From NCBI GenBank assembly GCA_041854745.1, contig JBHACT010000040.1, forward strand, positions 1,200 through 65,199: a stretch of 64,000 nt of DNA. The letters run 5' to 3'. The translations under genes were made by a program, and so were the position numbers. Source of the DNA: Candidatus Limimorpha sp. (GTDB lineage: Bacteria; Bacteroidota; Bacteroidia; Bacteroidales; F082). This document shows positions 8,330 through 61,049 of the stretch, piece after piece (positions within the stretch are counted from its first letter, which is position 1; every line of letters starts with the position of its first letter). Under the pieces are notes generated by a model that saw only the letters and a list, made by a program, of their open reading frames with translations, was not told the DNA's origin and searched no databases.

Positions 8330-10096
8330 TTATTTCTCAATGAATGCAATGGTTTCACCCTTACTGACGCGCTGGCCTTGTTCTGCCGTGGCTTCCACGA
8401 TTTTGCCGGGCCAGAGCGCATAGACGGGTTCCATGCCGTGCTCGCTGTTGATGGCGCAAAGCAGGTCGCCTTCCTTATAAACTGTTCCGGGAGCGGGCGA
8501 CACCGATTTGTCGTCAAAGTCAACCTCCCACATCACCCTGCCGCTCACGGGGGCAATAACAGGTTCGGCATTCGGATGACGCAAGGCACGCAGGTCGGGA
8601 ATCTTTACTTCGCCGCCGTTTTTCTGGAACTTCTCCTGCATCTTGGCTTCCAATTCCTGATTGAAACGGCGTTTGGCCTCGCCCGACTTAAACTCGCGGT
8701 ACTGCTTTTCGTGCATGGCGAACTCAAACAGTTCTTCATCATCTTGTCCGCGTTCCCATCCGTTCTCTTCCATCTCCTTGATGAAGCGGGGCAGCTCATC
8801 AGGGTAGTTCTCTTGCGGGTTGCCCGTGAAGAACTCGAAGCCTTTTTTCTTGGCCAACTCCACGATTTCGGGCGACAAAGTGCCGGGCAACTTGCCGGCC
8901 TTGCCGAGAATCATGTTCCACGCGGCAGGGTCGATGCTGTTCTCGTAGCGCGGCTGGTCCATGCTGAGTGAATAAAGGTTCATCAGGGCGACATTTTTGG
9001 TATATTGGCTGAACGGTGTCACCAAAGGCGGGTTGCCGAGTTTGGGCCAGATGTTCTCTACCTCGTCGAAGAGCTCCACAAGGAGTTCGTCCTCGCTGAG
9101 TGCGGGCAGACCTTTCTTCTCGCGGTTCATGTTGATGGCCGCATGGACACCCTTCAGGTCGGCCATCAGCGAGCCAAACATGCCTCCGGGCAGGCCGCAG
9201 CCCACCAGCAGTGAGTTGAGGTAGCGGTTGCGCGGGTCAATCCAATAGCCGAGGAAGTCGTCGATAAAGCTTTGGGTCATGCTGCGGGCGGCCATGTAAG
9301 CCTTCATGTTGATGTCCTTGACGAGGAAACCGGCATCTTTCAGCATGGCAACAACAGAGATGACATCGGGGTGGACAGTGCCCCACGACAGCGGCTCCAT
9401 GGCCACATCGAGGTAGTCGCAGCCCGCCTTGGCCACTTCAAGCATAGAAGCCATCGAGAGGCCCGGCCCCGTGTGACCGTGGTATTGCACCTTGATTTCG
9501 GGGTGCTGGGTCTTGATGTGGTTTACGATTTTGCCCAATGAGGCGGGACGGCCCACACCGGCCATGTCTTTCAGGCAGATTTCCTTGGCACCGGCGGCAA
9601 TCAGCTCATCGGCCATCTTGATATAATACTCCGCCGTATGCACCTGCGAATAGGTGATACTCATGGCGGCTTGCGAGACCATGCCGGCTTCGTTAGCCCA
9701 CTGGATGGAAGGAATGATGTTGCGCACATCGTTCAGTCCGCAGAAAATACGGGTGATGTCAACACCTTGGGCTTTCTTCACCTTGTACATCAGTTGGCGC
9801 ACATCGGCGGGCACGGGGTTCATTCTCAAGGCGTTGAGGGCGCGGTCCAGCATGTGGCACTCAATGCCGCCCTTGTGCAGGGCAGCAGTGAAAGCACGGA
9901 CTGACGGATTCGGGTTCTCGCCATAAAGCAGGTTGACCTGCTCGGCGGCGCCGCCGTTGGTTTCCACGCGGTCGAAGCAGCCCATGTCAATAATCAAGGG
10001 AGCGATTTGCTCCAATTGGTCCTTGCGTGGCACATATTTGCCTGACGACTGCCACATATCGCGGTAAACCAGGCTGAATTTCACTTCTTTTTTCAT
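8330..10096 (-). CDS. Oxaloacetate decarboxylase alpha / pyruvate carboxylase subunit B-like carboxyltransferase
   Basis: Carboxyltransferase TIM-barrel region (RVETNGGA, QYHGHTGPG) followed by a C-terminal biotinyl/lipoyl-like fold that lacks the AMKM lysine. Confidence 0.8.
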   Translation of the reverse strand: MKKEVKFSLVYRDMWQSSGKYVPRKDQLEQIAPLIIDMGCFDRVETNGGAAEQVNLLYGENPNPSVRAFTAALHKGGIECHMLDRALNALRMNPVPADVRQLMYKVKKAQGVDITRIFCGLNDVRNIIPSIQWANEAGMVSQAAMSITYSQVHTAEYYIKMADELIAAGAKEICLKDMAGVGRPASLGKIVNHIKTQHPEIKVQYHGHTGPGLSMASMLEVAKAGCDYLDVAMEPLSWGTVHPDVISVVAMLKDAGFLVKDINMKAYMAARSMTQSFIDDFLGYWIDPRNRYLNSLLVGCGLPGGMFGSLMADLKGVHAAINMNREKKGLPALSEDELLVELFDEVENIWPKLGNPPLVTPFSQYTKNVALMNLYSLSMDQPRYENSIDPAAWNMILGKAGKLPGTLSPEIVELAKKKGFEFFTGNPQENYPDELPRFIKEMEENGWERGQDDEELFEFAMHEKQYREFKSGEAKRRFNQELEAKMQEKFQKNGGEVKIPDLRALRHPNAEPVIAPVSGRVMWEVDFDDKSVSPAPGTVYKEGDLLCAINSEHGMEPVYALWPGKIVEATAEQGQRVSKGETIAFIEK

Positions 10097-49596: not shown

Positions 49597-50822
49597 TCGG
49601 CTCGTTTTTCTTTCATTTTCTTGATGAGGTACCAGATAAGGGCCGCGAAAGCCACGACATAAACCATCCAATAGAGGCCGGTTTGCGCGTAGTTGATACT
49701 GTCTAAACGGCGGTCCTCCACGCTGGAAGAGGGATGACGGGTAACGGGATTCAAATAAAGGAAATTTCGTCCGTTGATGTTGATTCGTGTCCGCACATAG
49801 TGGTCGTCTGGCTGTATAACATAATAGGCCGTTCCAACGCCTTCCTCGGTTTTCAGCACCTTGCCGCCTTGACCGATGAACTGGACTTGGTTCATGGTCT
49901 CTGCTGAGGTCTCAATAAATAAGGTATCGCCGACCAACTGCGCTTGGGTCAGATAGTCAAGGGCTTGGACTTCCTTTGCTTTTTGTTCGAGTGTGAGGGG
50001 GAAATAGTAGTAGTTGTCGAACTCCACGGCGTAGCACAAGCCTTTGTCTAAAGCATGGTAGATATGTTTTGGAGTAAGGTCGGGCGTGTTGACCATAGTC
50101 AGGTTGCGGCACACCTCGTGCACATTGGTGATGTTGTGCGTGTCGTCGTCGCCGAGGGCATACACGCGATGTCCATTGGAAAGGGCCATGTCCCAGTGTT
50201 CCATTGCGTTGCCATAGGGGTTGAGTACCTCAAGAAGGCGGTAGTTGCTCAACAATTGCATGTCGCTTACCTTATAGCCTTTCGTAAACGACGCATGGGC
50301 AGGCATGACAAAACGGCTCCTTTCGCCCAACTTGTTGATCATGTGCTGCTTCATGTTGAGGTTCTGAAAGAAAGGGAAGTCGGGCCAATACACCGACTCG
50401 GCTCCAATGCAGATTTGGTGCGTCTTGCGGATGAGACCGTAACCGTGTTCGTATGCAGGGATATAGTCTTCTCTGTCGGCCCCATGCGGGTTGATACTCA
50501 TGTAGTCCGAAATGCCGTAATGGTCGTAGCCCAAGGCCCGATACACGCTGTCAATGTCCCTTTCCTTGCTCTTTCGCCCGTTGGTCAAACCGGAATATTT
50601 ACGCGAATGGCAATGGAAATGGTACTTCTTCCATTGGTCGGGCTTCATGTCCTGATAGGGGTTGTAAAGGTATTCGCCGCTGAAGGGTTTCGGCTCTTTG
50701 AAACTATAGGTGGGCACGGAGAGATATACATACAATATCAGCAGCAGCAAAGCAAAGCCTATGCCCGCCATCACCCTGACAATATATAGCCAAAAGCCTT
50801 TTTTATGATTCTTGTTTTGCAT
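49593..50822 (-). CDS. Membrane-anchored PHP-like metal-dependent phosphoesterase
   Basis: N- and C-terminal TM helices; ordered His/Asp/Glu motifs YHFHCHS, GISDYMSINPHG, AYEHGYG, VMPAHAS, GDDDTHN resemble the PHP motif series. Confidence 0.55.
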   Translation of the reverse strand: MQNKNHKKGFWLYIVRVMAGIGFALLLLILYVYLSVPTYSFKEPKPFSGEYLYNPYQDMKPDQWKKYHFHCHSRKYSGLTNGRKSKERDIDSVYRALGYDHYGISDYMSINPHGADREDYIPAYEHGYGLIRKTHQICIGAESVYWPDFPFFQNLNMKQHMINKLGERSRFVMPAHASFTKGYKVSDMQLLSNYRLLEVLNPYGNAMEHWDMALSNGHRVYALGDDDTHNITNVHEVCRNLTMVNTPDLTPKHIYHALDKGLCYAVEFDNYYYFPLTLEQKAKEVQALDYLTQAQLVGDTLFIETSAETMNQVQFIGQGGKVLKTEEGVGTAYYVIQPDDHYVRTRININGRNFLYLNPVTRHPSSSVEDRRLDSINYAQTGLYWMVYVVAFAALIWYLIKKMKEKRAE

Positions 50823-50844
50823 TCGAGAGGTCGTTATCGGCCTG

Positions 50845-50852
50845 CAAAATTA
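50845..50852 (-). promoter_or_regulatory. Bacteroidota -7 promoter box (TAnnTTTG)
   Basis: TAATTTTG on minus strand, 22 nt before ATG 50822. Confidence 0.55.
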
Positions 50853-50925
50853 ATGGAAAAAAATGGAAAGCCAAAAAAGATGGTTGTTTTTTGTTGAAGA
50901 ACGTCTTTCAGAAAATATAAAATCG

Positions 50926-50933
50926 TAAATTTG
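50926..50933 (+). promoter_or_regulatory. Bacteroidota -7 promoter box (TAnnTTTG)
   Basis: TAAATTTG, 35 nt before sufB ATG. Confidence 0.55.
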
Positions 50934-50968
50934 CAGCCTAATTTGAAATCATTCTTAATAAGAAAAAA

Positions 50969-52420
50969 ATGGAGTCAGATCCGAAAGACAATATCATCAG
51001 CGAAGTCACAAGCAAAGAATATGAATATGGATTTGTGACCGACATCGAGACCGATTTCGCGCCAAAAGGCCTGAACGAAGACATCGTCCGCCTAATCTCC
51101 AAGAAGAAGGAAGAGCCGGAATGGCTATTGGAATTTCGCTTGGAGGCCTTCCGCCATTGGCAGACCTTGAAACAGCCCAATTGGGCGCATCTCGACATTC
51201 CCGAAATCAACTATCAGGACATCATATATTATGCCGCACCACGCAAACGGCAGCAGAAGCAGAGTCTCGATGAGGTGGATCCTGAGTTGTTGGCAACCTT
51301 CGACAAACTCGGCATCTCCTTAGACGAGCAAAAGAAACTCTCAGGCGTGGCCGTTGACGCGGTAATGGACTCGACCTCAGTGAAGACGACCTTCCAAGAC
51401 ACGCTCTCCAAACACGGTGTCATCTTCATGTCGTTCAGCGAGGCCGTCAAACAGCACCCCGACCTTGTCAGGAAATACCTCGGCAAGGTGGTGCCTTATA
51501 CGGACAATTTCTTTGCCGCGCTCAATTCGGCGGTGTTTAGCGACGGCTCGTTCTGCTACATCCCGAAAGGTGTGCGCTGTCCCTTGGAACTATCCACTTA
51601 TTTCCGCATCAATGCTGCCAATACAGGCCAGTTTGAGCGCACCCTCATCGTGGCTGATGAAGGCGCGTATGTGAGTTACATGGAAGGCTGCACAGCGCCG
51701 CAACGCGATGAAAACCAGCTTCATGCCGCTATCGTGGAAATCATTGCCGAGACTGCTGCCGAGGTGAAATATTCTACTGTTCAGAACTGGTATCCGGGTG
51801 ATAAGGAAGGCCGTGGCGGCGTGTATAACCTCGTCACCAAGCGTGGGCTTTGTCGTGGCGACCGCTCCAAAATCTCATGGACACAGGTCGAGACGGGATC
51901 GGCTATTACGTGGAAATACCCAAGTTGTGTGCTGATGGGCGACAATTCGGTGGGTGAGTTCTATTCCGTTGCCGTAACCAACAACTACCAGCAAGCCGAC
52001 ACGGGTACCAAGATGATTCATTTGGGCAAGAACACCCGTAGCACCATCATCTCGAAAGGCATCTCCGCAGGTCACAGCCAAAACGGCTACCGTGGCTTGG
52101 TGAAAGTTGTCCCAAGAGCCGAAAATGCACGCAACTACTCGCAGTGCGACTCGCTGCTGCTCGGCGACCAATGCGGCGCGCACACTTGGCCTTATGTGGA
52201 ATGCGGCAACGAGTCGAGCATCCTCGAACACGAGGCTACAACCTCGAAAATCTCAGAGGATCAACTGTTCTACTGTCAGCAGCGCGGCATCCCAACGGAA
52301 AAAGCCATCGGATTGATTGTCAATGGCTACGCCAAGGATGTGCTGAACAAACTGCCCATGGAATTTGCTGTTGAAGCACAGAAACTGCTGTCAATAACTT
52401 TGGAAGGTAGTGTAGGCTAA
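50969..52420 (+). CDS. sufB: Fe-S cluster assembly protein SufB
   Basis: Full-length SufB pattern (...YMEGCTAP...GAHTWPYVE...). Confidence 0.92.
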
Positions 52421-52421
52421 A

Positions 52422-53375
52422 ATGGAAATATTTGCTGAAATATTATATGGTGATTGTGCGGAACAATTAAAGTATCTGCCTGATAACTCAGTGGATTTGA
52501 TTGTTACATCACCGCCGTATGCCGATCAGCGAAAGAATACTTACGGTGGAGTTTCTGTAAATCACTATGTGGAATGGTTCCTTCCTATTACAAAGGAATT
52601 GTTGCGAGTATTGAAACCCACTGGAACATTTATCTTAAACATCAAGGAAAAAGTTCAAAACGGAGAAAGAAGCACGTATGTTCTGGAACTTATTCTTGAA
52701 ATGAGAAAGCAGGGATGGCTATGGACGGAAGAGTTCATTTGGCATAAGAAAAACTGCTATCCTGGAAAGTGGCCCAACCGTTTCCGTGATGCATGGGAAA
52801 GACTTTTGCAGTTCAATAAGAGCAAGAAATTCAACATGTATCAGGATTCTGTAATGGTACCTACGGGAGATTGGGCTAAAACAAGGCTTAAAAAACTAAG
52901 CGAAATAGATAAGATGCGTGATAATTCCAAAGTTGGAAGTGGATTTGGCAAGAATATTTCTAACTGGGAAGGGAGAGATAAGGCTTATCCTACCAATGTT
53001 CTACATCTTGCAACAGAATGCAGTAACAAGAATCACAGTGCGGCTTTTCCTGAATCATTGCCAGAGTGGTTCATCAAATTGTTTACGAAAGAAGGCGACA
53101 CTGTTTTGGATCCTTTTATGGGCAGTGGAACAACAAATTATGTCGCTCAGCGAATGCATAGGAATAGTATTGGAATAGAGATTAAATCAGAATATTATCA
53201 ACAAGTTAAGGAACAGTTGCAGTCATGTGGCTTACTGCTTTTTGAACAACCTCAACCTTATGGAAAAGAATCTAATAATTCAGGTGAAGAACTATGTGGA
53301 ACAGAATATAGATCAGTTCCACCAGAACCGTATAAAAAAAGTAGAAAACTTAAAACTAAAGACCATACTAAGTAA
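52422..53375 (+). CDS. Beta-class amino DNA methyltransferase (SPPY, probably N4-cytosine)
   Basis: Motif IV DLIVTSPPY near the N-terminus, HSAAFPESLP, motif I VLDPFMGSGTT near the C-terminus (IV-before-I order = beta class); AT-rich. Confidence 0.85.
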   Translation: MEIFAEILYGDCAEQLKYLPDNSVDLIVTSPPYADQRKNTYGGVSVNHYVEWFLPITKELLRVLKPTGTFILNIKEKVQNGERSTYVLELILEMRKQGWLWTEEFIWHKKNCYPGKWPNRFRDAWERLLQFNKSKKFNMYQDSVMVPTGDWAKTRLKKLSEIDKMRDNSKVGSGFGKNISNWEGRDKAYPTNVLHLATECSNKNHSAAFPESLPEWFIKLFTKEGDTVLDPFMGSGTTNYVAQRMHRNSIGIEIKSEYYQQVKEQLQSCGLLLFEQPQPYGKESNNSGEELCGTEYRSVPPEPYKKSRKLKTKDHTK

Positions 53376-54009
53376 AAAGAATCCATATCTGTTCAAAGCG
53401 AAGTATAATGTGACAGCCTATGATATATTGAAGTCATTGGCCGATGCTTTTCTGTCTTCCGCCGAAGAAACTGTTTTTGGTGACTGGATGGAAGGCTTGG
53501 CTATATTTGTCAATCAACAGGTTTATGGTGGTTGGAAGTCTTCCGCAAAGGGCGTTGATTTAGAGTTTGATAAGGAAGGTGTCCGTTATATTGTTTCAAT
53601 AAAATCAGGGCCAAATTGGGGAAATAGCAGTCAGGTCAATAAACTCAAGGAAGATTTTAAGTCTGCAAAAAGGACTTTACGAACAAGTAAATCAAATCTG
53701 ACCATTGAAGCCATAAACGGTTGTTGTTACGGTAAAGACAATAACCCGGATAAAGGTGATTATATAAAGTATTGTGGTCAGGATTTTTGGTATTTCATTT
53801 CAGGAGAAAAATCGCTTTATGTTGACATTATTGAACCATTGGCGACAAAAGCGAAAGAAAGAAATGAGGAATTCCAAAAGCGTTATGCTCAAATGATCAA
53901 TGTTTTCACCAAGGAGTTTATTGATGAGTTTTGTAAGGAAAATGGTGAAATAGATTGGGAAAAACTGGTAAAGTATAATTCGGGAAGTGTTTCATTAGAA
54001 AAGCAATAA
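53260..54009 (+). CDS. Type II restriction endonuclease-like protein (PD-(D/E)XK; reminiscent of Eco47II-type enzymes)
   Basis: KKNPYLFKAK, SSAEETVFGDWMEGLA, GVDLEF...YIVSIKSGPNWGNSSQ; follows and overlaps the methyltransferase; start 53260 (ATG) or 53227 (GTG). Confidence 0.6.
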   Translation: MEKNLIIQVKNYVEQNIDQFHQNRIKKVENLKLKTILSKKNPYLFKAKYNVTAYDILKSLADAFLSSAEETVFGDWMEGLAIFVNQQVYGGWKSSAKGVDLEFDKEGVRYIVSIKSGPNWGNSSQVNKLKEDFKSAKRTLRTSKSNLTIEAINGCCYGKDNNPDKGDYIKYCGQDFWYFISGEKSLYVDIIEPLATKAKERNEEFQKRYAQMINVFTKEFIDEFCKENGEIDWEKLVKYNSGSVSLEKQ

Positions 54010-54012
54010 TAA

Positions 54013-55350
54013 ATGTCACAAGCGATCCGCTCAAATAACCTGCCTTTTTGGTTGCTCCTCATCGGAATGTTCCTCATTTTGGTGAGTGGCAGCCTGTTGA
54101 CCGAAGGCATGTTCTTTGATGGCGTGACCTATGCCTCCATCTCGCGCAACATGGCGGAAGGGCAGGGGACATTCTGGAATCCGCACTACACGCAGACCTT
54201 GTATCCCGAGTTCCGTCAGCATCCGCCTTTGGCCTTGGGCTTGGAAGCCCTCGCGTTCAAGGCTTTGGGTGACTATTGGTGGGTGGAAAAGGCCTATTCC
54301 GTGCTGACTTTCCTTCTCACAGCTTTGCTAATTGGGTTGATTTGGAAACGTACCACCAACAACCTCCGTTGGGCTTGGCTTCCGCTGCTGTTCTGGTTGG
54401 CCATGCCTTTGGTCACTTGGTGCGCCACCAACAACATGCTTGAAAACACCATGTCGGTTTTCGTGCTGTCGTCGGTTTATCTGATGATTATTAGTTATCA
54501 GCGCAACCATAAGATTTGGCTGGTTTTGTCGGCCTTTACCCTGCTTATGGCCTTTCTTTCCAAAGGATTCACGGGGCTGTTTCCCTTGGTGTTCCCCGTC
54601 CTGTATTGTATCTTCGATCCAAAGCGAAAATGGATTAAAGGACTGATTGACAGTCTGTTGCTGTTGATTTTCGTAGCGGTCTTTGCAGGTGTCATGTTCT
54701 TGGTGTTTCCGCAGTCTTTTTCTTATTTTAAAGACTATATCCAACTCCAAGTCATTGGCGGCGGACTGCACGAAGCCACAGCCTCGTCAAGGTCGTACAT
54801 CGTTTTCAGCCTGTTGCAGCAATTGATAATTCCGTTTCTGATGGCCATGACACTGGTAATCTGCAAAACCAAAAGCAAGGGCAACCAAAAGGTCTTCGAG
54901 TTCCCGACCGACAAGGCTTGGTTCTATGTTTTCTTAGTTTTGGGTCTCGCGGGCGTGCTGCCCATCATGTTGAGCGTGAAGCAACGGGATTTTTATATGC
55001 TGGCTGCTTTGCCTTTTTTTGCCTTGGCTTGTGGGCATATCACCATTTCCATGATTAACACATTGATGTTGAGGATAATGCCCAAAGTGCGCAATTGGAT
55101 GACAAGGGGAGCGATAGGAGCCGTGTTGATAGGGCTTGTACTGAATATCACTCATATTGGGGAATACGGCCGCGATGAAGTGTTGATTGAAGATGTGAAA
55201 AAGCGGATGGCAGAAGCGGATGGCAAGAATAGTATCGAGATTTCATCTGAAGAATACACACAATGGGCTGTTCATGCTTATTTTATGCGTTATGGAAAAA
55301 TCAGCCTGAACCCAAACCAAATAACTGAATATGAACAATTGAATAATTAA
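54013..55350 (+). CDS. GT39/ArnT-like membrane glycosyltransferase embedded in the suf operon
   Basis: FFDGVTYASISRNMAEGQG...RQHPPLALGL signature, about 11 TM helices. Confidence 0.7.
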   Translation: MSQAIRSNNLPFWLLLIGMFLILVSGSLLTEGMFFDGVTYASISRNMAEGQGTFWNPHYTQTLYPEFRQHPPLALGLEALAFKALGDYWWVEKAYSVLTFLLTALLIGLIWKRTTNNLRWAWLPLLFWLAMPLVTWCATNNMLENTMSVFVLSSVYLMIISYQRNHKIWLVLSAFTLLMAFLSKGFTGLFPLVFPVLYCIFDPKRKWIKGLIDSLLLLIFVAVFAGVMFLVFPQSFSYFKDYIQLQVIGGGLHEATASSRSYIVFSLLQQLIIPFLMAMTLVICKTKSKGNQKVFEFPTDKAWFYVFLVLGLAGVLPIMLSVKQRDFYMLAALPFFALACGHITISMINTLMLRIMPKVRNWMTRGAIGAVLIGLVLNITHIGEYGRDEVLIEDVKKRMAEADGKNSIEISSEEYTQWAVHAYFMRYGKISLNPNQITEYEQLNN

Positions 55351-55355
55351 ATATC

Positions 55356-56102
55356 ATGTTACTGAATATCAAAAATTTACATGTCTCCATCGGAGGCAAA
55401 GAAATCCTAAAAGGATTGAATCTGGGTGTCAATGAGGGTGAAACTCACGCCATTATGGGCCCCAACGGAACTGGGAAAAGCACCTTGGCAGCGGCCGTTA
55501 CAGGGCGGGAGGGCTATGAGATTACCGAGGGTGAAATCTGGTACAAGGGCAAAAACATCGTCGGGATGTCGCCCGAAGACCGCGCCAACGAAGGCATCTT
55601 CCTAAGTTTCCAATATCCTGTCGAGATTCCCGGCGTGAGCATACAAAATTTCATCCGGACTGCCGTCAACTCGAAGCGTGAGTATCAAGGACTTCCGCCT
55701 ATGAACACTGTCGATTTCATAAAGATGATGAAGGAGAAGCAGGCCATGGTGGAAATCACCGAAAAATTGCAGAACCGTTTCGTCAATGTGGGTTACTCAG
55801 GTGGCGAGAAGAAGAAAAACGAGATTTTCCAGATGGCCATGTTGGAACCCAGCCTTGCCATCCTCGACGAGACCGACTCTGGTCTCGACATTGATGCACT
55901 GCGCATTGTGGCGCATGGTGTCAACCAGCTGCACAATGCCGAGAATGCCTTCGTGGTCATCACTCACTACCAGCGTCTGCTCGACTACATCGTCCCCGAT
56001 TTCGTCCATGTGATGTATGACGGACGCATTGTCAAGACGGGCGGCAAAAACCTCGCCCTCGAACTCGAAGAAAAAGGTTACGAATGGATTAAGGAACTTT
56101 GA
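55356..56102 (+). CDS. sufC: Fe-S cluster assembly ATPase SufC
   Basis: Walker A GPNGTGKST, ABC signature YSGGEKKKNE, Walker B LAILDETDSGLD. Confidence 0.92.
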   Translation: MLLNIKNLHVSIGGKEILKGLNLGVNEGETHAIMGPNGTGKSTLAAAVTGREGYEITEGEIWYKGKNIVGMSPEDRANEGIFLSFQYPVEIPGVSIQNFIRTAVNSKREYQGLPPMNTVDFIKMMKEKQAMVEITEKLQNRFVNVGYSGGEKKKNEIFQMAMLEPSLAILDETDSGLDIDALRIVAHGVNQLHNAENAFVVITHYQRLLDYIVPDFVHVMYDGRIVKTGGKNLALELEEKGYEWIKEL

Positions 56103-56104
56103 TT

Positions 56105-56932
56105 ATGGCCAACCAACTTATCATAGCCGCCAACCAAAGCCGCGAAATCATTGAGTATGACGATGACGCACACTTGTCGGCAGAGCCGAGGGCTTCAGAA
56201 ATCGTCCTTAACGAGAATGCCAGCCTTGAGTTGTATGTGCTTCAAAATGTGAGCAACGAGGCTTCCATGCAGCGGGAGTTCAAGATCAGGCAGCTGGCCA
56301 ACAGTCGGCTGAAAATTGTGTTCATCACCTTCAACAGTGGCCATATCCGCAATACTTTTCATGTGGATTTGGACGGCGAAGGTGCTGATAGTCAGGTACA
56401 CGGACTCTATCTCATAGACAAGACCCAACGTGTAGAGAACTACCTGAAAGTGAACCACAATGTACCTAATTGCACCAGCAACGAGAAGTTCAAAGGCATC
56501 ATCGACGACTCGGCCTCTGCGGTGTTCAACGGTCATGTTTATGTGGCTCCGAATGCCCAAAAAACCAATGCCCAACAAAACAACAGTAACATCATCCTTA
56601 CCCCAACGGCCAAAATCAACAGCCAGCCGTTTTTGGAGATTTATGCCGATGACGTGAAATGCGCTCACGGCACTACCACGGGCCAACTTGACCAAGAGGC
56701 CATGTTCTATATGCGACAGCGAGGCATCAGCAAGGCCAATGCACGGATTCTGCTGATGTATGCCTTTGCCGCAGAGGTGAGCAACCACATCGGTAATGAG
56801 ATGCTGCACGAACATATCGACGACATGATTAAGCGCCGCTTGCGGGGCGAATTGTCGAGTTGCGAAACCTGCGTTTTGCGCTGTAGCCACCCGAAGGAAT
56901 ACAATTTTGACATTGATTATTCGAAAATATGA
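56105..56932 (+). CDS. sufD: Fe-S cluster assembly protein SufD (short form)
   Basis: SufB/D beta-helix core (...LEIYADDVKCAHGTTTGQLD...FYMRQRGI...); ATG 56105. Confidence 0.8.
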   Translation: MANQLIIAANQSREIIEYDDDAHLSAEPRASEIVLNENASLELYVLQNVSNEASMQREFKIRQLANSRLKIVFITFNSGHIRNTFHVDLDGEGADSQVHGLYLIDKTQRVENYLKVNHNVPNCTSNEKFKGIIDDSASAVFNGHVYVAPNAQKTNAQQNNSNIILTPTAKINSQPFLEIYADDVKCAHGTTTGQLDQEAMFYMRQRGISKANARILLMYAFAAEVSNHIGNEMLHEHIDDMIKRRLRGELSSCETCVLRCSHPKEYNFDIDYSKI

Positions 56933-56990
56933 CTATGGCTAATGGCCACTTCCTCAATATGTTGAAGTGGCCATAGTCAAGGATGTTTTT
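56930..56990 (+). terminator. Strong hairpin plus T-run between sufD and sufS (attenuator/partial terminator?)
   Basis: TGACTAT..GGCCACTTC-11 nt-GAAGTGGCC-ATAGTCA nested stems starting at the sufD stop codon, then GGATGTTTTT. Confidence 0.45.
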
Positions 56991-57014
56991 AGAAAACGGT
57001 GAAGTTTAACTACG

Positions 57015-58232
57015 ATGTTAAGTATTAAAGAAATAAGAAATCAATTTCCTGCCCTTGACCAACAGGTCTATGGCAAACCCTTGGTTTATCTCGACAATGC
57101 AGCCACCACGCAGAAGCCATTGTGCGTTATTGAGCGTGAGCGTGACTATTACCTGAACGAGAACTGTAATATCCACCGTGGGGTGCATTACCTGAGTCAG
57201 AAGGCTACTGAGGCCTACGAAAAAGCCCGTCAGACCGTGGCGCATTTTGTCAATGCCAAGGAGCCTCGTGAAATTGTCTTCACCCGAGGCACTACGGAGT
57301 CATTGAACCTACTTGCCACTGCCTTTGAGCATCATTGTATCGAAACAGGCGACAAGGTGCTGGTCACGGCTATGGAGCACCATTCCAATCTCGTGCCTTG
57401 GCAACAGATGATACAACGGCACCGGGGGCAGTTGCTCGTTGTGCCGATGGACGATAAGGGGGTGTTGGACATGGAACAATATGAAAAGCTGCTGAAGGAA
57501 AGCCCGAAGGTGGTGTCCATCGCGCACATTTCCAATGTGTTGGGTACTATTAATCCCGTGAAGGAAATGGTAGCGATGGCACATCAGTATGACATACCTG
57601 TAGTAATTGACGGTGCCCAGTCCATTGCCCATCATTCTATTGATGTTCAAGACCTTGACTGCGATTTCTTTGTCTTCTCTGGCCACAAGATGTATGCTCC
57701 GATGGGTATTGGCGGCTTGTACGGCAAGGCGGAGTGGTTAGAGAAGTTGCCTCCCTATCAGTTTGGCGGCGAAATGGTTGACACGGTGAGTTTCGAGAAA
57801 ACCACTTTCAATGTGTTACCTTATAAGTTCGAGGCGGGAACGCCCAATGTGGGGGCAGCTTTGGGCTTGGAGGCCGCTGTTCAATTCCTGCAAAGCATTG
57901 ACAGAAAAGCAGTTGAAGAGCATGAGGCGCAACTGTTGCAGTCTGCCATAGGGCAACTTTCGGATATTGAAGGTATACGGTTCGTTGGAGAGGCGGAACA
58001 GTGCAGTGGTCTGGTGTCGTTTGTCATTGACGGCATTCACCCTTACGACCTTGGCACCATCATCGACAAGATGGGCGTGGCGGTGCGTACGGGACACCAT
58101 TGCGCTGAGCCGGTGATGACACGTTTCGGAATCCCTGGTACGGTGCGGGCTTCGTTTGCCTTGTATAATACGATGGAAGAGGTGGGCACTTTTGTCAATG
58201 CGGTGAAGAAGGCTGCGACGATGCTGCGTTAG
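57015..58232 (+). CDS. sufS: Cysteine desulfurase SufS
   Basis: HHSNLVPWQ, PLP-Lys FSGHKMYAPMG, catalytic Cys RTGHHCAEP. Confidence 0.9.
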   Translation: MLSIKEIRNQFPALDQQVYGKPLVYLDNAATTQKPLCVIERERDYYLNENCNIHRGVHYLSQKATEAYEKARQTVAHFVNAKEPREIVFTRGTTESLNLLATAFEHHCIETGDKVLVTAMEHHSNLVPWQQMIQRHRGQLLVVPMDDKGVLDMEQYEKLLKESPKVVSIAHISNVLGTINPVKEMVAMAHQYDIPVVIDGAQSIAHHSIDVQDLDCDFFVFSGHKMYAPMGIGGLYGKAEWLEKLPPYQFGGEMVDTVSFEKTTFNVLPYKFEAGTPNVGAALGLEAAVQFLQSIDRKAVEEHEAQLLQSAIGQLSDIEGIRFVGEAEQCSGLVSFVIDGIHPYDLGTIIDKMGVAVRTGHHCAEPVMTRFGIPGTVRASFALYNTMEEVGTFVNAVKKAATMLR

Positions 58233-58746
58233 GCGTTTCTATAATTTCGGCCTCTGTTGACGGCTCTTCTGCTTTCTTGTCTTCTTTCTCAACAGTTTCC
58301 AATGTGATTTTTCCGTCCTTCAGCTTGATTTTCTTTTTCAATCTGATGGGCGCAATAATCAGCACAAGCAACGCCTCAAGGGCATATTTCGTCATGGGGA
58401 TAACCCCAGTCGTTACGACTTGGAAAACGATGAGTAGGATGGAGGCAACCACAAAGATGGCTTTGCCGTGGATTTTCTTTCTGAATATTTGTATCAAACT
58501 GAATACCAGCAATATAAGTAGTAGTAATTGGAGAATCGGGATGAGAAGCTCTGATTGGTCTTGCTGGAAGGTTGTTATTTTGTAATAGTAGTGGTCAATG
58601 TAATATTGACTGAAAACAATTGTGATGATGGCGAAGATGAGCAGCAGCCCGTAATAGGTGATGGCGAAACTGGCCGCCAACTTCATCAGTAGTGTCATCT
58701 CGGGCTTTAGGTTAAATATCTTTCCTTCGCGCTGTTCCATGGTCAT
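58195..58746 (-). CDS. Hypothetical membrane protein
   Basis: Four predicted TM helices, Lys/Glu-rich tail; 3' end overlaps sufS 3' end by 38 nt. Confidence 0.5.
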   Translation of the reverse strand: MTMEQREGKIFNLKPEMTLLMKLAASFAITYYGLLLIFAIITIVFSQYYIDHYYYKITTFQQDQSELLIPILQLLLLILLVFSLIQIFRKKIHGKAIFVVASILLIVFQVVTTGVIPMTKYALEALLVLIIAPIRLKKKIKLKDGKITLETVEKEDKKAEEPSTEAEIIETPNAASSQPSSPH

Positions 58747-59243
58747 TCGGGGTTTTGTGTTTGTTGCAACATCTCTATGCGTTTGAAATGAAGGTAATAC
58801 AACAAGATAAAGATGGCGGTGAGCATCAGGTCGGAGAAAAATGGAGATGGTTTTTGCAGGGGGTAGACATACATGGATTTGTCAATCAACATGCAGATTT
58901 GGGCGATGGCATAGATATGGAAACCGCGCTTGTCGCCTCTGAACATCCTAATGACTCCCATCAACGATGCAATGAACAACACCATCAGAATGAGATAGAA
59001 TTTGGAATCGATTTGGTTGACGAAATACATCGCCTCGCTCATGGCCTTGGCGAAATCTCCACCTAAAATGGAAAACGGTTGCATCATCTCCTCGAATTGC
59101 CCATTGTTGAACAATTCGGTTATTTGTGGTTTCATTATTAGCGAAATCATTGAACTGAAGATGTTCCAACAGGCGTTTATGAATGACAATACAAGGAGGA
59201 AGGTCATTCCTACGGGGCGTTTTTTCTGATTGGTGGTTTCCAT
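58743..59243 (-). CDS. Hypothetical membrane protein
   Basis: Four predicted TM helices; ATG 59243 preferred because the 59282 extension is a translated repeat unit; ATGA overlap with downstream gene. Confidence 0.5.
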   Translation of the reverse strand: METTNQKKRPVGMTFLLVLSFINACWNIFSSMISLIMKPQITELFNNGQFEEMMQPFSILGGDFAKAMSEAMYFVNQIDSKFYLILMVLFIASLMGVIRMFRGDKRGFHIYAIAQICMLIDKSMYVYPLQKPSPFFSDLMLTAIFILLYYLHFKRIEMLQQTQNPE

Positions 59244-59256
59244 TCTATTTTTTTTT

Positions 59257-59533
59257 GTATGGCTGTCGTACCACGGCAGCATTTATTTGTATGGCTGTCG
59301 TACCGCGGCAGCCTATTATATTTGTAGGGCCATCACACCACGGCAGCATTTATTTGTAGGGCTGTCACACCGTGGCGGCGTTTATTTGTAGGGCTGTCGT
59401 ACCACGGCAGCATTTATTTGTAGGGCCATCACACCACGGCGGCGTTTATTTGTAGGGCTGTCACACCGTGGCAGCCTTACCTGTGGCAGCCGTGATACGA
59501 CATGCCGGCTGCCGTAATACGACAGTCCTACAG
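59257..59533. repeat. Tandem array of 7 direct (32-35 bp) plus 2 inverted TGTAGGGCTGTCG...CGGCAGC hairpin units
   Basis: Units start at 59257, 59289, 59324, 59356, 59388, 59420, 59452; inverted copies at about 59487-59507 and 59509-59533; no unique spacers. Confidence 0.9.
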
Positions 59534-59537
59534 TGAA

Positions 59538-61049
59538 TTATTCATTTTTCAAATCATCAAATGCCAGCGGATAGTCCTTCACGAACTGTACGCTCTTGGC
59601 AATTTCGGTGTACATCACCTTGTCGGTACGCACAAATTCCACCTGTTTGCGGTATTCGGCAACAAACTCTTCGATGATGGGTGAAGACTTCAACGGACGG
59701 CGGAATTCAAGTGCTTGAGTGGCGTTGAACAGCTCGATGGCGAGGACGCGCTCTATGTTCTCTGCCACGCGCAAAGCCTTCGTTGCAGCGTTGGCTCCCA
59801 TACTGACATGGTCTTCCTGTCCTTGCGACGACTCAATGCTGTCGACTGAAGCAGGTGTGCAAAGTTGTTTGCTCTGGCTGACAATGCTGGCGGCGGCATA
59901 TTGCGGAATCATGAAGCCGGAGTTGAGGCCGGGCTCGGCGACGAGGAAGGAAGGCAGATTGCGTTTGCCACCAATGAGCTGATAAATACGGCGTTCGCTG
60001 ATGTTGCCCAACTCAGCCATGGCGATGGCTAAGAAATCTAAGGTGATGGCCAAAGGCTGACCGTGGAAGTTGCCGGCGGAGATGACCAGGTCTTCATCGG
60101 GGAAGATGGTTGGGTTGTCGGTGACGGCGTTGATTTCCTTGCTGAACACAGAGGCCACATAGTCGATGGCATCTTTCGAGGCACCATGTACTTGGGGCAT
60201 GCAACGGAAGGAGTATGGGTCTTGAACATGTTTCTTTTCCCTGACAATCAGCTCGCTGCCCTTGGTGAACTCGCGCACGCGTTTTGCTGTGACGATTTGT
60301 CCGTTGTGGTGGCGAACCTGATGTACTTGGTCGAAGAAAGGCTCAATACGGCCGTCGAAGGCTTCCAAGGAAACGGTGCCGATGAGGTCGGCGAGATAGC
60401 TGAGGCGGAAGGCCTTCAGCAACACATAGGTGCCATAGCTGTTCATAAACTGCGTGCCGTTGAGCAGGGCCAGACCTTCTTTCGACTGTAAGGTGATGGG
60501 CTGCCAACCGAACTTGTCAAGGACCTGTTGCGACGGGACGATTTTGCCCTCATAATGCACTTCGCCCAAGCCGAGCAGCGGCAGCATGAGGTTGGCCAAA
60601 GGAGCCAAATCGCCGGAGGCACCGAGCGAGCCTTGGTTGTAGACCACGGGCAGCACATCGTTGTTGAAGAAGTCGATGAGGCGTTGGACAGTCACGACCT
60701 GCACGCCGCTATTGCCGTAGCTGAGGCTCTGCACTTTCAATAACAGCATGAGGCGGATGATTTCCTCGGGCACCATCTCGCCCGTGCCGCAAGCGTGCGA
60801 CATGACGAGGTTTTTCTGCAAGGTGCTCAGGTCTTCTTTCGAGATGCTATGGTCGCAGAGGGAGCCGAAGCCGGTGGTTACGCCGTAGATGGGCTTCTCT
60901 TGGTTCTCCATCTTCTTGTCGAGGTAGTCGCGGCATTTCTGAATGCGTTGGATGGCGTCGTCCGATAAGGCCAGTTTGTAACCTTTGGTGATTATTTCAT
61001 TTACCTGTTTGAAGGTCAATTCTTTGGATGAGATTTTGTGGATTTCCAT
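59538..61049 (-). CDS. hutH: Histidine ammonia-lyase
   Basis: MIO-forming GASGDLAPL; selectivity position reads MSH (Ser-His, HAL-type). Confidence 0.9.
   Translation of the reverse strand: MEIHKISSKELTFKQVNEIITKGYKLALSDDAIQRIQKCRDYLDKKMENQEKPIYGVTTGFGSLCDHSISKEDLSTLQKNLVMSHACGTGEMVPEEIIRLMLLLKVQSLSYGNSGVQVVTVQRLIDFFNNDVLPVVYNQGSLGASGDLAPLANLMLPLLGLGEVHYEGKIVPSQQVLDKFGWQPITLQSKEGLALLNGTQFMNSYGTYVLLKAFRLSYLADLIGTVSLEAFDGRIEPFFDQVHQVRHHNGQIVTAKRVREFTKGSELIVREKKHVQDPYSFRCMPQVHGASKDAIDYVASVFSKEINAVTDNPTIFPDEDLVISAGNFHGQPLAITLDFLAIAMAELGNISERRIYQLIGGKRNLPSFLVAEPGLNSGFMIPQYAAASIVSQSKQLCTPASVDSIESSQGQEDHVSMGANAATKALRVAENIERVLAIELFNATQALEFRRPLKSSPIIEEFVAEYRKQVEFVRTDKVMYTEIAKSVQFVKDYPLAFDDLKNE

Follow-up and report, generated by a model that had tools for sequence, protein, structure and literature searches.

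An intact Type II restriction-modification pair as a probable long-standing passenger of the suf operon in a Bacteroidales genome

The stretch of DNA analysed here (the window) is 64 kb of contig JBHACT010000040.1 from a Candidatus Limimorpha sp. assembly (GCA_041854745.1; Bacteroidales), in which the suf operon for Fe-S assembly contains three additional co-directional genes between sufB and sufC. Two of these encode a DNA methyltransferase (M, the methylase) and a restriction endonuclease (R), which form a Type II restriction-modification (R-M) pair, and the third encodes a membrane glycosyltransferase of the PMT_2 family. Coordinates are those of the window, and the relatives compared with it are metagenome contigs or metagenome-assembled genomes (MAGs), labelled with L numbers. 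The features of the locus are as follows.

50926-50933, plus strand: TAAATTTG, candidate -7 box of the suf promoter, from a pattern search; 43 nt 5' of the sufB ATG in a 146-nt divergent intergenic region, putative in function.
50969-52420, plus strand: sufB, 483 amino acids (aa), normal C-terminus intact (NCBIfam SufB, 6e-271; Pfam SUFBD_core, 2.2e-77); aligns over its full length with 80 relatives.
52395-52402, plus strand: TAACTTTG, candidate internal -7 box within I-T-L codons of sufB, from a TAnnTTTG pattern search; 27 nt before the methylase ATG, window-specific.
52422-53375, plus strand: DNA methyltransferase, beta class, 317 aa (Pfam N6_N4_Mtase, PF01555, 3e-48).
53260-54009, plus strand: Type II restriction endonuclease of the EcoO109I/PmeII family, 249 aa (Pfam RE_EcoO109I, PF14511, 3.9e-88).
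53260-53375, plus strand: overlap of the 3' end of M with the 5' end of R, 116 nt, from the sequence.
53502-53509, plus strand: TATATTTG, a consensus match only, in A-I-F-V codons of the endonuclease, from the TAnnTTTG search; 3' of the endonuclease start, with 504 nt separating it from the PMT_2 ATG.
54010-54012, plus strand: second in-frame TAA, the entire spacer between endonuclease and PMT_2, from the sequence; same junction in L183/L184.
54013-55350, plus strand: PMT_2-family membrane glycosyltransferase, 445 aa (Pfam PMT_2, 4.9e-9), with a host-like GC content at third codon positions (GC3) of 0.61.
55356-56102, plus strand: sufC (NCBIfam SufC, 2.4e-107).
56099-56932, plus strand: sufD, short form, 277 aa (TIGR01981, 1.6e-63, profile positions 45-274).
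57015-58232, plus strand: sufS cysteine desulfurase (TIGR01979, 3.2e-173).

An earlier note, made from the sequence alone, had proposed that an R-M cassette was spliced stop-to-start into the operon, and the junctions lie where it placed them. The sufB stop TAA (52418-52420) is followed by a single base (A) and the methylase ATG at 52422; the endonuclease ends in TAA (54007-54009) and a further in-frame TAA (54010-54012), directly before the ATG at 54013; and the suf genes resume with sufC at 55356, sufD at 56099 and sufS at 57015. The AT-richness it described is also real, with a GC content of 0.372 for the R-M pair versus 0.513 in the 1.5 kb upstream and 0.471 in the 1.5 kb downstream. Among the 38 open reading frames (ORFs) of at least 200 aa in the window, the methylase and the endonuclease have the lowest GC3 (0.33 and 0.35), and host ORFs of this size range from 0.45 to 0.73 with a median of 0.63. 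Other parts of that description were modified. The R-M pair stands as part of the insert, but the ORF at 54013 is the PMT_2 glycosyltransferase and no suf gene, making the insert compound. The sequences TAAAATG and TAAATG that the two junctions were said to share are present, but they consist only of stop plus start codons and are not conserved, relatives having TAG-ca-ATG, TAATG or TAA-17 nt-ATG instead. Of the claim that the cassette holds neither a TAnnTTTG box nor a terminator, the second half holds, with no terminator found on the plus strand inside the pair, and the first does not, given TATATTTG at 53502-53509. RNA at the junctions folds no better than shuffled sequence (z -0.29, +0.94 and +1.55). 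An assembly chimera was ruled out, since assemblies made independently of one another have identical junctions (L183 and L184, which are two NCBI MAGs, and L083-L088); the Logan contig L001 was left out as independent support because it is 100% identical to the window.

The genes were identified as a Type II R-M pair, as the earlier note had supposed, by Pfam, NCBIfam, PADLOC, PDB sequence and fold matches that all agree. In the translated methylase, the catalytic SPPY motif occupies residues 30-33 and the FMGSGTT motif that binds S-adenosylmethionine (AdoMet) residues 231-237, a permuted order with motif IV near the N-terminus and motif I near the C-terminus that places the enzyme in the beta class. 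The closest solved relative is M.PvuII (PDB 1BOO), an N4-cytosine methyltransferase that matches over residues 8-259 (4.9e-32) and shares the permuted motif order and the S-P-P-aromatic catalytic motif, and the PADLOC model MTase_II also matches (2.1e-51); the product is most likely N4-methylcytosine. M.PvuII pairs with a different endonuclease, whose target is CAGCTG, and the likeness says little about the target here.

The match of the endonuclease to PF14511 covers profile positions 2-198 of 198, and its AlphaFold2 model (pLDDT 88.8) adopts the fold of EcoO109I, the best Foldseek match (1WTE/1WTD, TM 0.63-0.68, E 6e-8). EcoO109I structures were the only strong matches, the next being five orders of magnitude weaker; identity in the structural alignment is ~15%, and phmmer of the endonuclease against PDB sequences returned no match. 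The protein retains all 76 invariant residues of a 48-sequence family alignment, including E69, E70, D100, E102 and K115, and relatives with 69-71% identity carry the NCBI label 'PmeII family type II restriction endonuclease'. The target of EcoO109I is RGGNCCY. The target here is probably a GGNCC-type palindrome, for example GGWCC or RGGNCCY, because the relatives are named after PmeII and the fold is that of the EcoO109I family. PmeII itself recognises GGWCC (PMC8112702). No GGWCC site lies within 49712-60521 of the window. Both genes are under strong purifying selection, with ratios of non-synonymous to synonymous change of 0.01-0.12: dN/dS is 0.014-0.09 for the endonuclease, and for the methylase the ratio of non-synonymous to synonymous differences (pN/pS) versus L183 is ~0.12, with pN of 0.06-0.07 where pS is saturated.

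An overlap of 116 nt between the two genes is found in the window, L103, L183 and L193, as against 8-20 nt in relatives whose methylase has 264-285 aa. The long overlap arose because the methylase stop was lost, leaving a read-through tail of the last ~35 aa (relatives end at 282-285 aa), which is a by-product of conserved endonuclease codons. The order of methylase then endonuclease, with an overlapping start, is constant from ColE1-type plasmids to Bacteroidales, which points to translation of the endonuclease being dependent on that of the methylase. No C-protein controller was found, as there is no extra ORF in or beside the pair and the endonuclease starts inside the methylase gene. Public gene calls omit the methylase in L001 and cut the endonuclease to 199 aa in L183 and to 79 aa in L193; these calls are wrong because of the 116-nt overlap, and since the ORFs are intact, decay as a reading of the short endonuclease calls was ruled out. 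No model in PADLOC 2.0 matches the endonuclease, and automated defence finders would therefore report at most an orphan methylase.

The suf genes are normally contiguous, as the earlier note had stated: sufC lies within 300 nt of sufB in 62 of 80 Bacteroidota loci from GTDB, and none of the 80 carries a methylase, an endonuclease or PMT_2 at the sufB locus. These loci were retrieved with a SufB probe and are distant (SufB at most 81% identical), and closer relatives were found through protein searches. The empty site that the earlier note had proposed looking for was found among them, as junctions free of the R-M pair in L185, L186 and L188. The junctions are listed here with SufB identity to the window.

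L183/L184, SufB 97%: sufB, 1 nt, M-R, 3 nt, PMT2, sufC; junctions the same as in the window.
L185, SufB 96%: sufB, 39 nt, PMT2, sufC; without the R-M pair.
L186/L187, SufB 94%: sufB, 65 nt, sufC.
L193/L194, SufB 94%: sufB overlapping M (TAATG), M-R, 13 nt, sufC.
L103, contig holding only the last 92 aa of SufB (99% identical), SufC 92%: sufB, 2 nt, M-R, 11 nt, sufC.
L091-L098, SufB 90%: sufB, 17 nt, M-R, 12 nt, sufC.
L188-L192, SufB 87%: sufB, 24 nt, sufC.

At least five diverged lineages, their SufB 90-97% identical, thus have the pair at sufB|sufC, and three related lineages are without it. Four states of the junction can be distinguished: R-M with PMT2 (window, L183, L184), R-M only (L103, L193, L091-L098), PMT2 only (L185) and empty (L186, L187, L188-L192). 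The spacer between sufB and the methylase differs by lineage (-1, 1, 2 or 17 nt). PMT_2 is limited to the window, L183/L184 and L185, being absent from L103, L193, L091, L186 and L188, and is therefore a second insert, added later behind the R-M pair; its spacers are 3 nt on the endonuclease side and 5 nt on the sufC side. Two other PMT_2 genes and one DUF2079 gene lie just upstream on the opposite strand, and an origin of the inserted PMT_2 gene as their local duplicate was ruled out, as tblastn gave no paralogue in the window. A perfect GC-rich hairpin of 8 bp (GGACGCAT tga ATGCGTCC; z -2.0) lies in the L185 spacer between sufB and PMT2 (8453-8491); it has no T-tract behind it and is absent from the window.

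Other Bacteroidota carry different cargo at sufB|sufC, consisting of single co-directional genes with very short spacers (L062 9446-10177, 243 aa with no Pfam match; L081 9425-10048; L070 7289-7684; L071 9483-9905). The types among these four are an unknown ORF, a PnuC nicotinamide mononucleotide transporter and 23S_rRNA_IVP four-helix-bundle proteins, and the junction therefore accepts inserts of various kinds. Downstream, the sufD start overlaps the sufC stop, and the short SufD, which is without the ~170 N-terminal residues found in most Bacteroidota, is common to L183, L185, L186, L193 and L091; L188 has a SufD of 466 aa.

Age and exchange were assessed from trees and synonymous divergence; the trees are neighbour-joining with few taxa, and dS was computed by the Nei-Gojobori method, which is quick to saturate. 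Copies of the pair in the suf context form one clade, ((window, L183), L103), (L091, L097), with copies from an argS|rsmE context as sister. The tree of SufB plus SufC has the same lineage order, with pair-free lineages nested among carriers. Between the window and L103, L193 and L091, the pair has pS of 0.71-0.84, saturated like that of the suf genes, and pN of 0.04-0.10, similar to that of SufB and SufC at saturated pS. The simplest history is a single old insertion with subsequent losses; a similar pattern would be expected if close relatives exchanged the pair often. The comparison with L183 is of another kind: dS is 0.049 for the methylase and 0.085 for the endonuclease versus 0.48-0.83 for sufB, sufC, sufS and PMT2, a roughly tenfold difference, and the R-M pair has recently been exchanged between the window and L183 lineages. 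This island of identity begins no more than ~100 nt from the sufB stop, ends 5 nt into PMT2 and holds a 516-nt stretch without any difference. A second, independent island, in the argS|rsmE context (L089 7064-8774 versus L104), is likewise limited to the R-M pair, with pS of 0.38-0.40 in the flanks, 0.098 in the methylase and 0.016 in the endonuclease, and it ends 5 nt into rsmE. That exchange tracts stop at the edges of the pair is puzzling.

Mobile-element signatures were sought at the pair and in the window. No direct or inverted repeats flank the pair, the window contains no tRNA genes and no Rfam matches, and no IMG/VR viral contig carries the pair, the single match to a phage record being distant (36% identical). 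An integron cassette was ruled out (3 nt between the endonuclease stop and the next ATG, no inverted repeat, no attC-like fold), as were a transposon or an insertion with target duplication, by the absence of repeats, and a phage or tRNA-linked island, by the lack of tRNA, Rfam and IMG/VR matches. The neighbours of the pair are suf, PMT_2 and metabolic genes, and no recombinase is associated with it.

The same module occurs widely. The endonuclease family is very large (7963 matches among 8000 scored candidates), and in 80 metagenome loci the methylase is always 5' of the endonuclease, the pair is usually AT-richer than its flanks, and it is often flanked by co-directional genes at distances of 0-20 nt, with neighbouring ORFs called by a crude longest-ORF rule. 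Tight contexts include purM|prfA, cysS|thioesterase, ?|queA, ?|sua5, uvrA|?, coaD-like|?, argS|rsmE and the junction between the TPP-binding and gamma subunits of a 2-oxoacid oxidoreductase. ColE1-type mobilizable plasmids of 5-7 kb carry the same module with an 8-nt overlap (M 75% and R ~50% identical), and 75% methylase identity across phyla is very high conservation. The plasmid hosts are Enterobacter, Klebsiella, Salmonella, Raoultella, Citrobacter and Aeromonas (for example L195, NZ_AP022470.1, 180-1725). Plasmid copies share the gene order and a short overlap but stand alone behind a 180-nt upstream region, unlike the window copy, which is chromosomal, apparently promoterless and within an essential operon. 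The earlier note had called this an unusual stabilisation context, a view that does not survive the comparison, as this R-M family repeatedly nests in housekeeping operons and precedents exist (PMC2853133, PMC1797815).

How the pair is expressed can be approached by comparing embedded and autonomous copies. The spacing between the -33 and -7 elements in Bacteroides is 19-21 nt. The Bacteroidetes sigma-ABfr -7 consensus is TAnnTTTG, and the typical Bacteroides 5' untranslated region (UTR) is ~23 nt (PMC7366714). Among 63 related loci, ten autonomous relatives with a long upstream spacer have TAnnTTTG 28-42 nt before the methylase ATG, which fits a -7 box followed by a short 5' UTR (PMC7366714); the embedded copies (suf, argS|rsmE, purM|prfA, cysS) have no such conserved box upstream of the methylase. 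Since a 1-nt spacer leaves no room for a promoter and the embedded relatives are free of the box, the pair is most likely expressed by read-through from the suf promoter. It is plausible that the pair is co-transcribed with suf from the TAAATTTG box. Iron or oxidative-stress control of pair dosage, which the earlier note had envisaged, would be an extrapolation from E. coli. The autonomous copies L134, L139, L140, L165, L166 and L171 share an upstream region that is sigma-70-like (TTGA..., 17 nt, TGgTAgAAT) and not the Bacteroidetes box, which suggests hosts outside Bacteroidota.

The reading we prefer, with a probability of roughly 0.7, is that an intact Type II R-M module is a long-standing, sometimes lost or exchanged passenger of the suf operon. 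The module would have entered the sufB|sufC junction in the ancestor of an uncultured Bacteroidales clade, come under strong purifying selection, been lost in some lineages and been replaced at least once by a near-identical allele of a related species, with the PMT_2 glycosyltransferase gene added behind it later. Having lost, or never had, a promoter and terminator of its own, it would be carried in a transcript sufB-M-R-PMT2-sufC-sufD-sufS that probably starts at the TAAATTTG box, in which the methylase-first order and overlapping start would keep endonuclease synthesis dependent on, and never above, methylase synthesis. The essential, conserved operon may provide steady expression, shelter the pair from imprecise deletion and supply homologous arms that help it to spread. 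The pair may have a role in defence or addiction; on an evolutionary time scale lineages can survive its absence or loss, as the pair-free relatives L185 and L186 show.

Several observations weigh against this reading. The GC3 of the pair is 0.22-0.38 in every suf lineage versus 0.55-0.84 for the suf genes, when long residence predicts drift towards the host, and the AT bias is kept even beside the L103 sufC with its GC3 of 0.84. Either selection, perhaps for low translation, maintains this bias or replacement from an AT-rich pool renews it; AT-richness is no evidence of recency, because synonymous sites have turned over between lineages while the bias was retained. A perfect TAACTTTG stands 27 nt before the methylase ATG, near the box position of the autonomous copies. 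In L083 (GCA_041849745.1) a GGA->TGA change in the FxGxG AdoMet motif of the methylase, equivalent to window position 53127, creates a nonsense codon beside an intact endonuclease, which is hard to square with an active endonuclease unless the change is an error or another methylase gives protection; the codon reflects either genuine inactivation or a faulty consensus, and the methylase is intact in L084, L086, L183 and L184 of the same lineage. The words expected to be avoided are not distinctive: measured against a maximal-order Markov expectation over the whole 64-kb window, observed/expected is 0.47 for GGWCC and 0.60 for GGSCC, versus 0.03 for CTAG, 0.15 for CCWGG and 0.28 for GATC, and word avoidance does not fix the target because unrelated palindromes are depleted as much or more. 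CAGCTG (0.34) and CCGG (0.43) are also depleted in the window, and the depleted palindromes hint at other restriction or repair pressures in the genome. Finally, the partner methylase of EcoO109I is of the 5-methylcytosine (m5C) type. That of PmeII is as well (PMC8112702). Unlike these systems, the endonuclease here is paired with a PvuII-like (SPPY) enzyme.

The alternative that survives best, though we hold it to be distinctly less likely than long residence, is that the pair behaves like a minimal mobile element (MME) with little vertical descent, being gained, lost and replaced repeatedly through the suf flanks, so that the congruent trees would reflect exchange among close relatives. Neisseria MMEs were reportedly treated by Saunders and Snyder in 2002. 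One example, MMEpheST, has pheS and pheT as its borders and carries R-M genes (Bentley et al. 2007, PMC1797815). Like these, the window pair consists of whole genes placed between conserved housekeeping neighbours, with no integrase, transposase or terminal repeat; it alternates with other contents at a syntenic site, and R-M genes are typical MME cargo. The four alternative contents of the site, the lack of mobility genes or repeats, two independent identity islands limited to the pair, a GC3 that has not ameliorated, the other single genes found at the same junction in other Bacteroidota and the Neisseria precedent (PMC1797815) all favour such a history. The flanks, however, were not co-transferred, identity falling at most 5 nt beyond the right edge of the pair and at most ~22-100 nt beyond its left edge, whereas MME tracts run into the flanks, and in most lineage pairs the divergence of the R-M pair equals or exceeds that of its flanks. 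The present case further differs in phylum and operon (Bacteroidales suf), in hosts for which natural transformation is not known, and in an insert that appears promoterless with spacers of 1-3 nt.

The other precedent consists of Type II R-M units inserted in operon-like gene clusters (Furuta, Abe and Kobayashi 2010, PMC2853133), which resemble the window pair in lying within a co-directional cluster and were read as mobile selfish units whose insertion at a start or stop spares the target genes. Those insertions were linked with flanking repeats or with long duplications of the target, and neither occurs here; the residence described here is also old, and the habit is common to a whole R-M family in many operons. 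In the literature, no paper was found that describes R-M genes in a suf operon. What goes beyond these precedents is the long residence in an essential operon, the nesting of a whole family in housekeeping operons, the failure of the AT-richness to drift towards the host and the exchange tracts that end at the edges of the pair.

An internal promoter particular to this strain, TAACTTTG at 52395-52402, which would make expression partly independent of suf, is unlikely. It offers a perfect -7 consensus at -27, close to the -28 to -42 of the autonomous box and compatible with 5' UTRs of ~23 nt (PMC7366714). The box arises from synonymous choice in I-T-L codons of sufB, though, and it is absent in all four other suf-context lineages, reading TTACTTTG in L183 and being missing also in L103, L091 and L193. 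The nearest TTTG is 27 nt upstream of TAACTTTG, outside the 19-21 nt spacing, and the window contains 50 TAnnTTTG matches versus 36.9 expected, so that single matches are common. As a general, conserved promoter of the pair TAACTTTG was therefore ruled out, being window-specific.

A single recent horizontal acquisition into suf, held in place by addiction and by polarity on sufCDS, was the origin favoured by the earlier note, and as an origin it is largely refuted and now improbable. Its foreign composition, empty sites in relatives, tight junctions and a pair far younger than its flanks in the comparison with L183 speak for it, but five or more lineages (SufB 90-97%) have the pair at this junction, with saturated synonymous sites and congruent trees, the spacers differ by lineage (-1, 1, 2 and 17 nt) and the AT bias is kept at a host GC3 of 0.84. 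Of the claim of horizontal acquisition, then, the foreign composition stood and the recent splice did not; and where a cassette of host-like composition throughout the family had been named as the contrary case, the module proved old at the site, yet polymorphic and AT-rich. It is equally improbable that the pair is a decaying remnant with an inactive endonuclease and a methylase that is simply tolerated or serves as an orphan epigenetic enzyme, as the nonsense codon in L083 beside an intact endonuclease, the lost methylase stop with its 35-aa tail and the unspecific avoidance of GGWCC are set against full-length ORFs in all other contigs, the 76 invariant endonuclease residues, a dN/dS of 0.014-0.09 and a tail that is a by-product of conserved endonuclease codons.

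If the module is indeed a long-standing passenger of suf, a defence or selfish gene pair can persist for long periods as a silent passenger of an essential operon, borrowing its promoter and shielded by indispensable neighbours. AT-rich composition is a poor clock for gene acquisition, and overlapping pairs such as the methylase and endonuclease of the window are missed by gene callers and defence-system finders. Highly conserved operons may act as landing pads and homology arms for interspecies gene flow among gut Bacteroidales, and if edge-limited tracts are general, they would represent a transfer route for small inserts without mobile-element machinery. More tentatively, and in our judgement doubtful as it stands, the family as a whole may follow an 'operon-passenger' lifestyle, consisting of promoterless colonisation of housekeeping stop-to-start junctions, long persistence, AT-rich rare codons and ORF-bounded exchange between species. 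If this were true, the AT-rich codons might be selected to limit translation of a toxic enzyme from a strong mRNA, and the sharp edges of the exchanged tracts might reflect an unrecognised precise cassette exchange or a characteristic outcome of recombination or mismatch repair.

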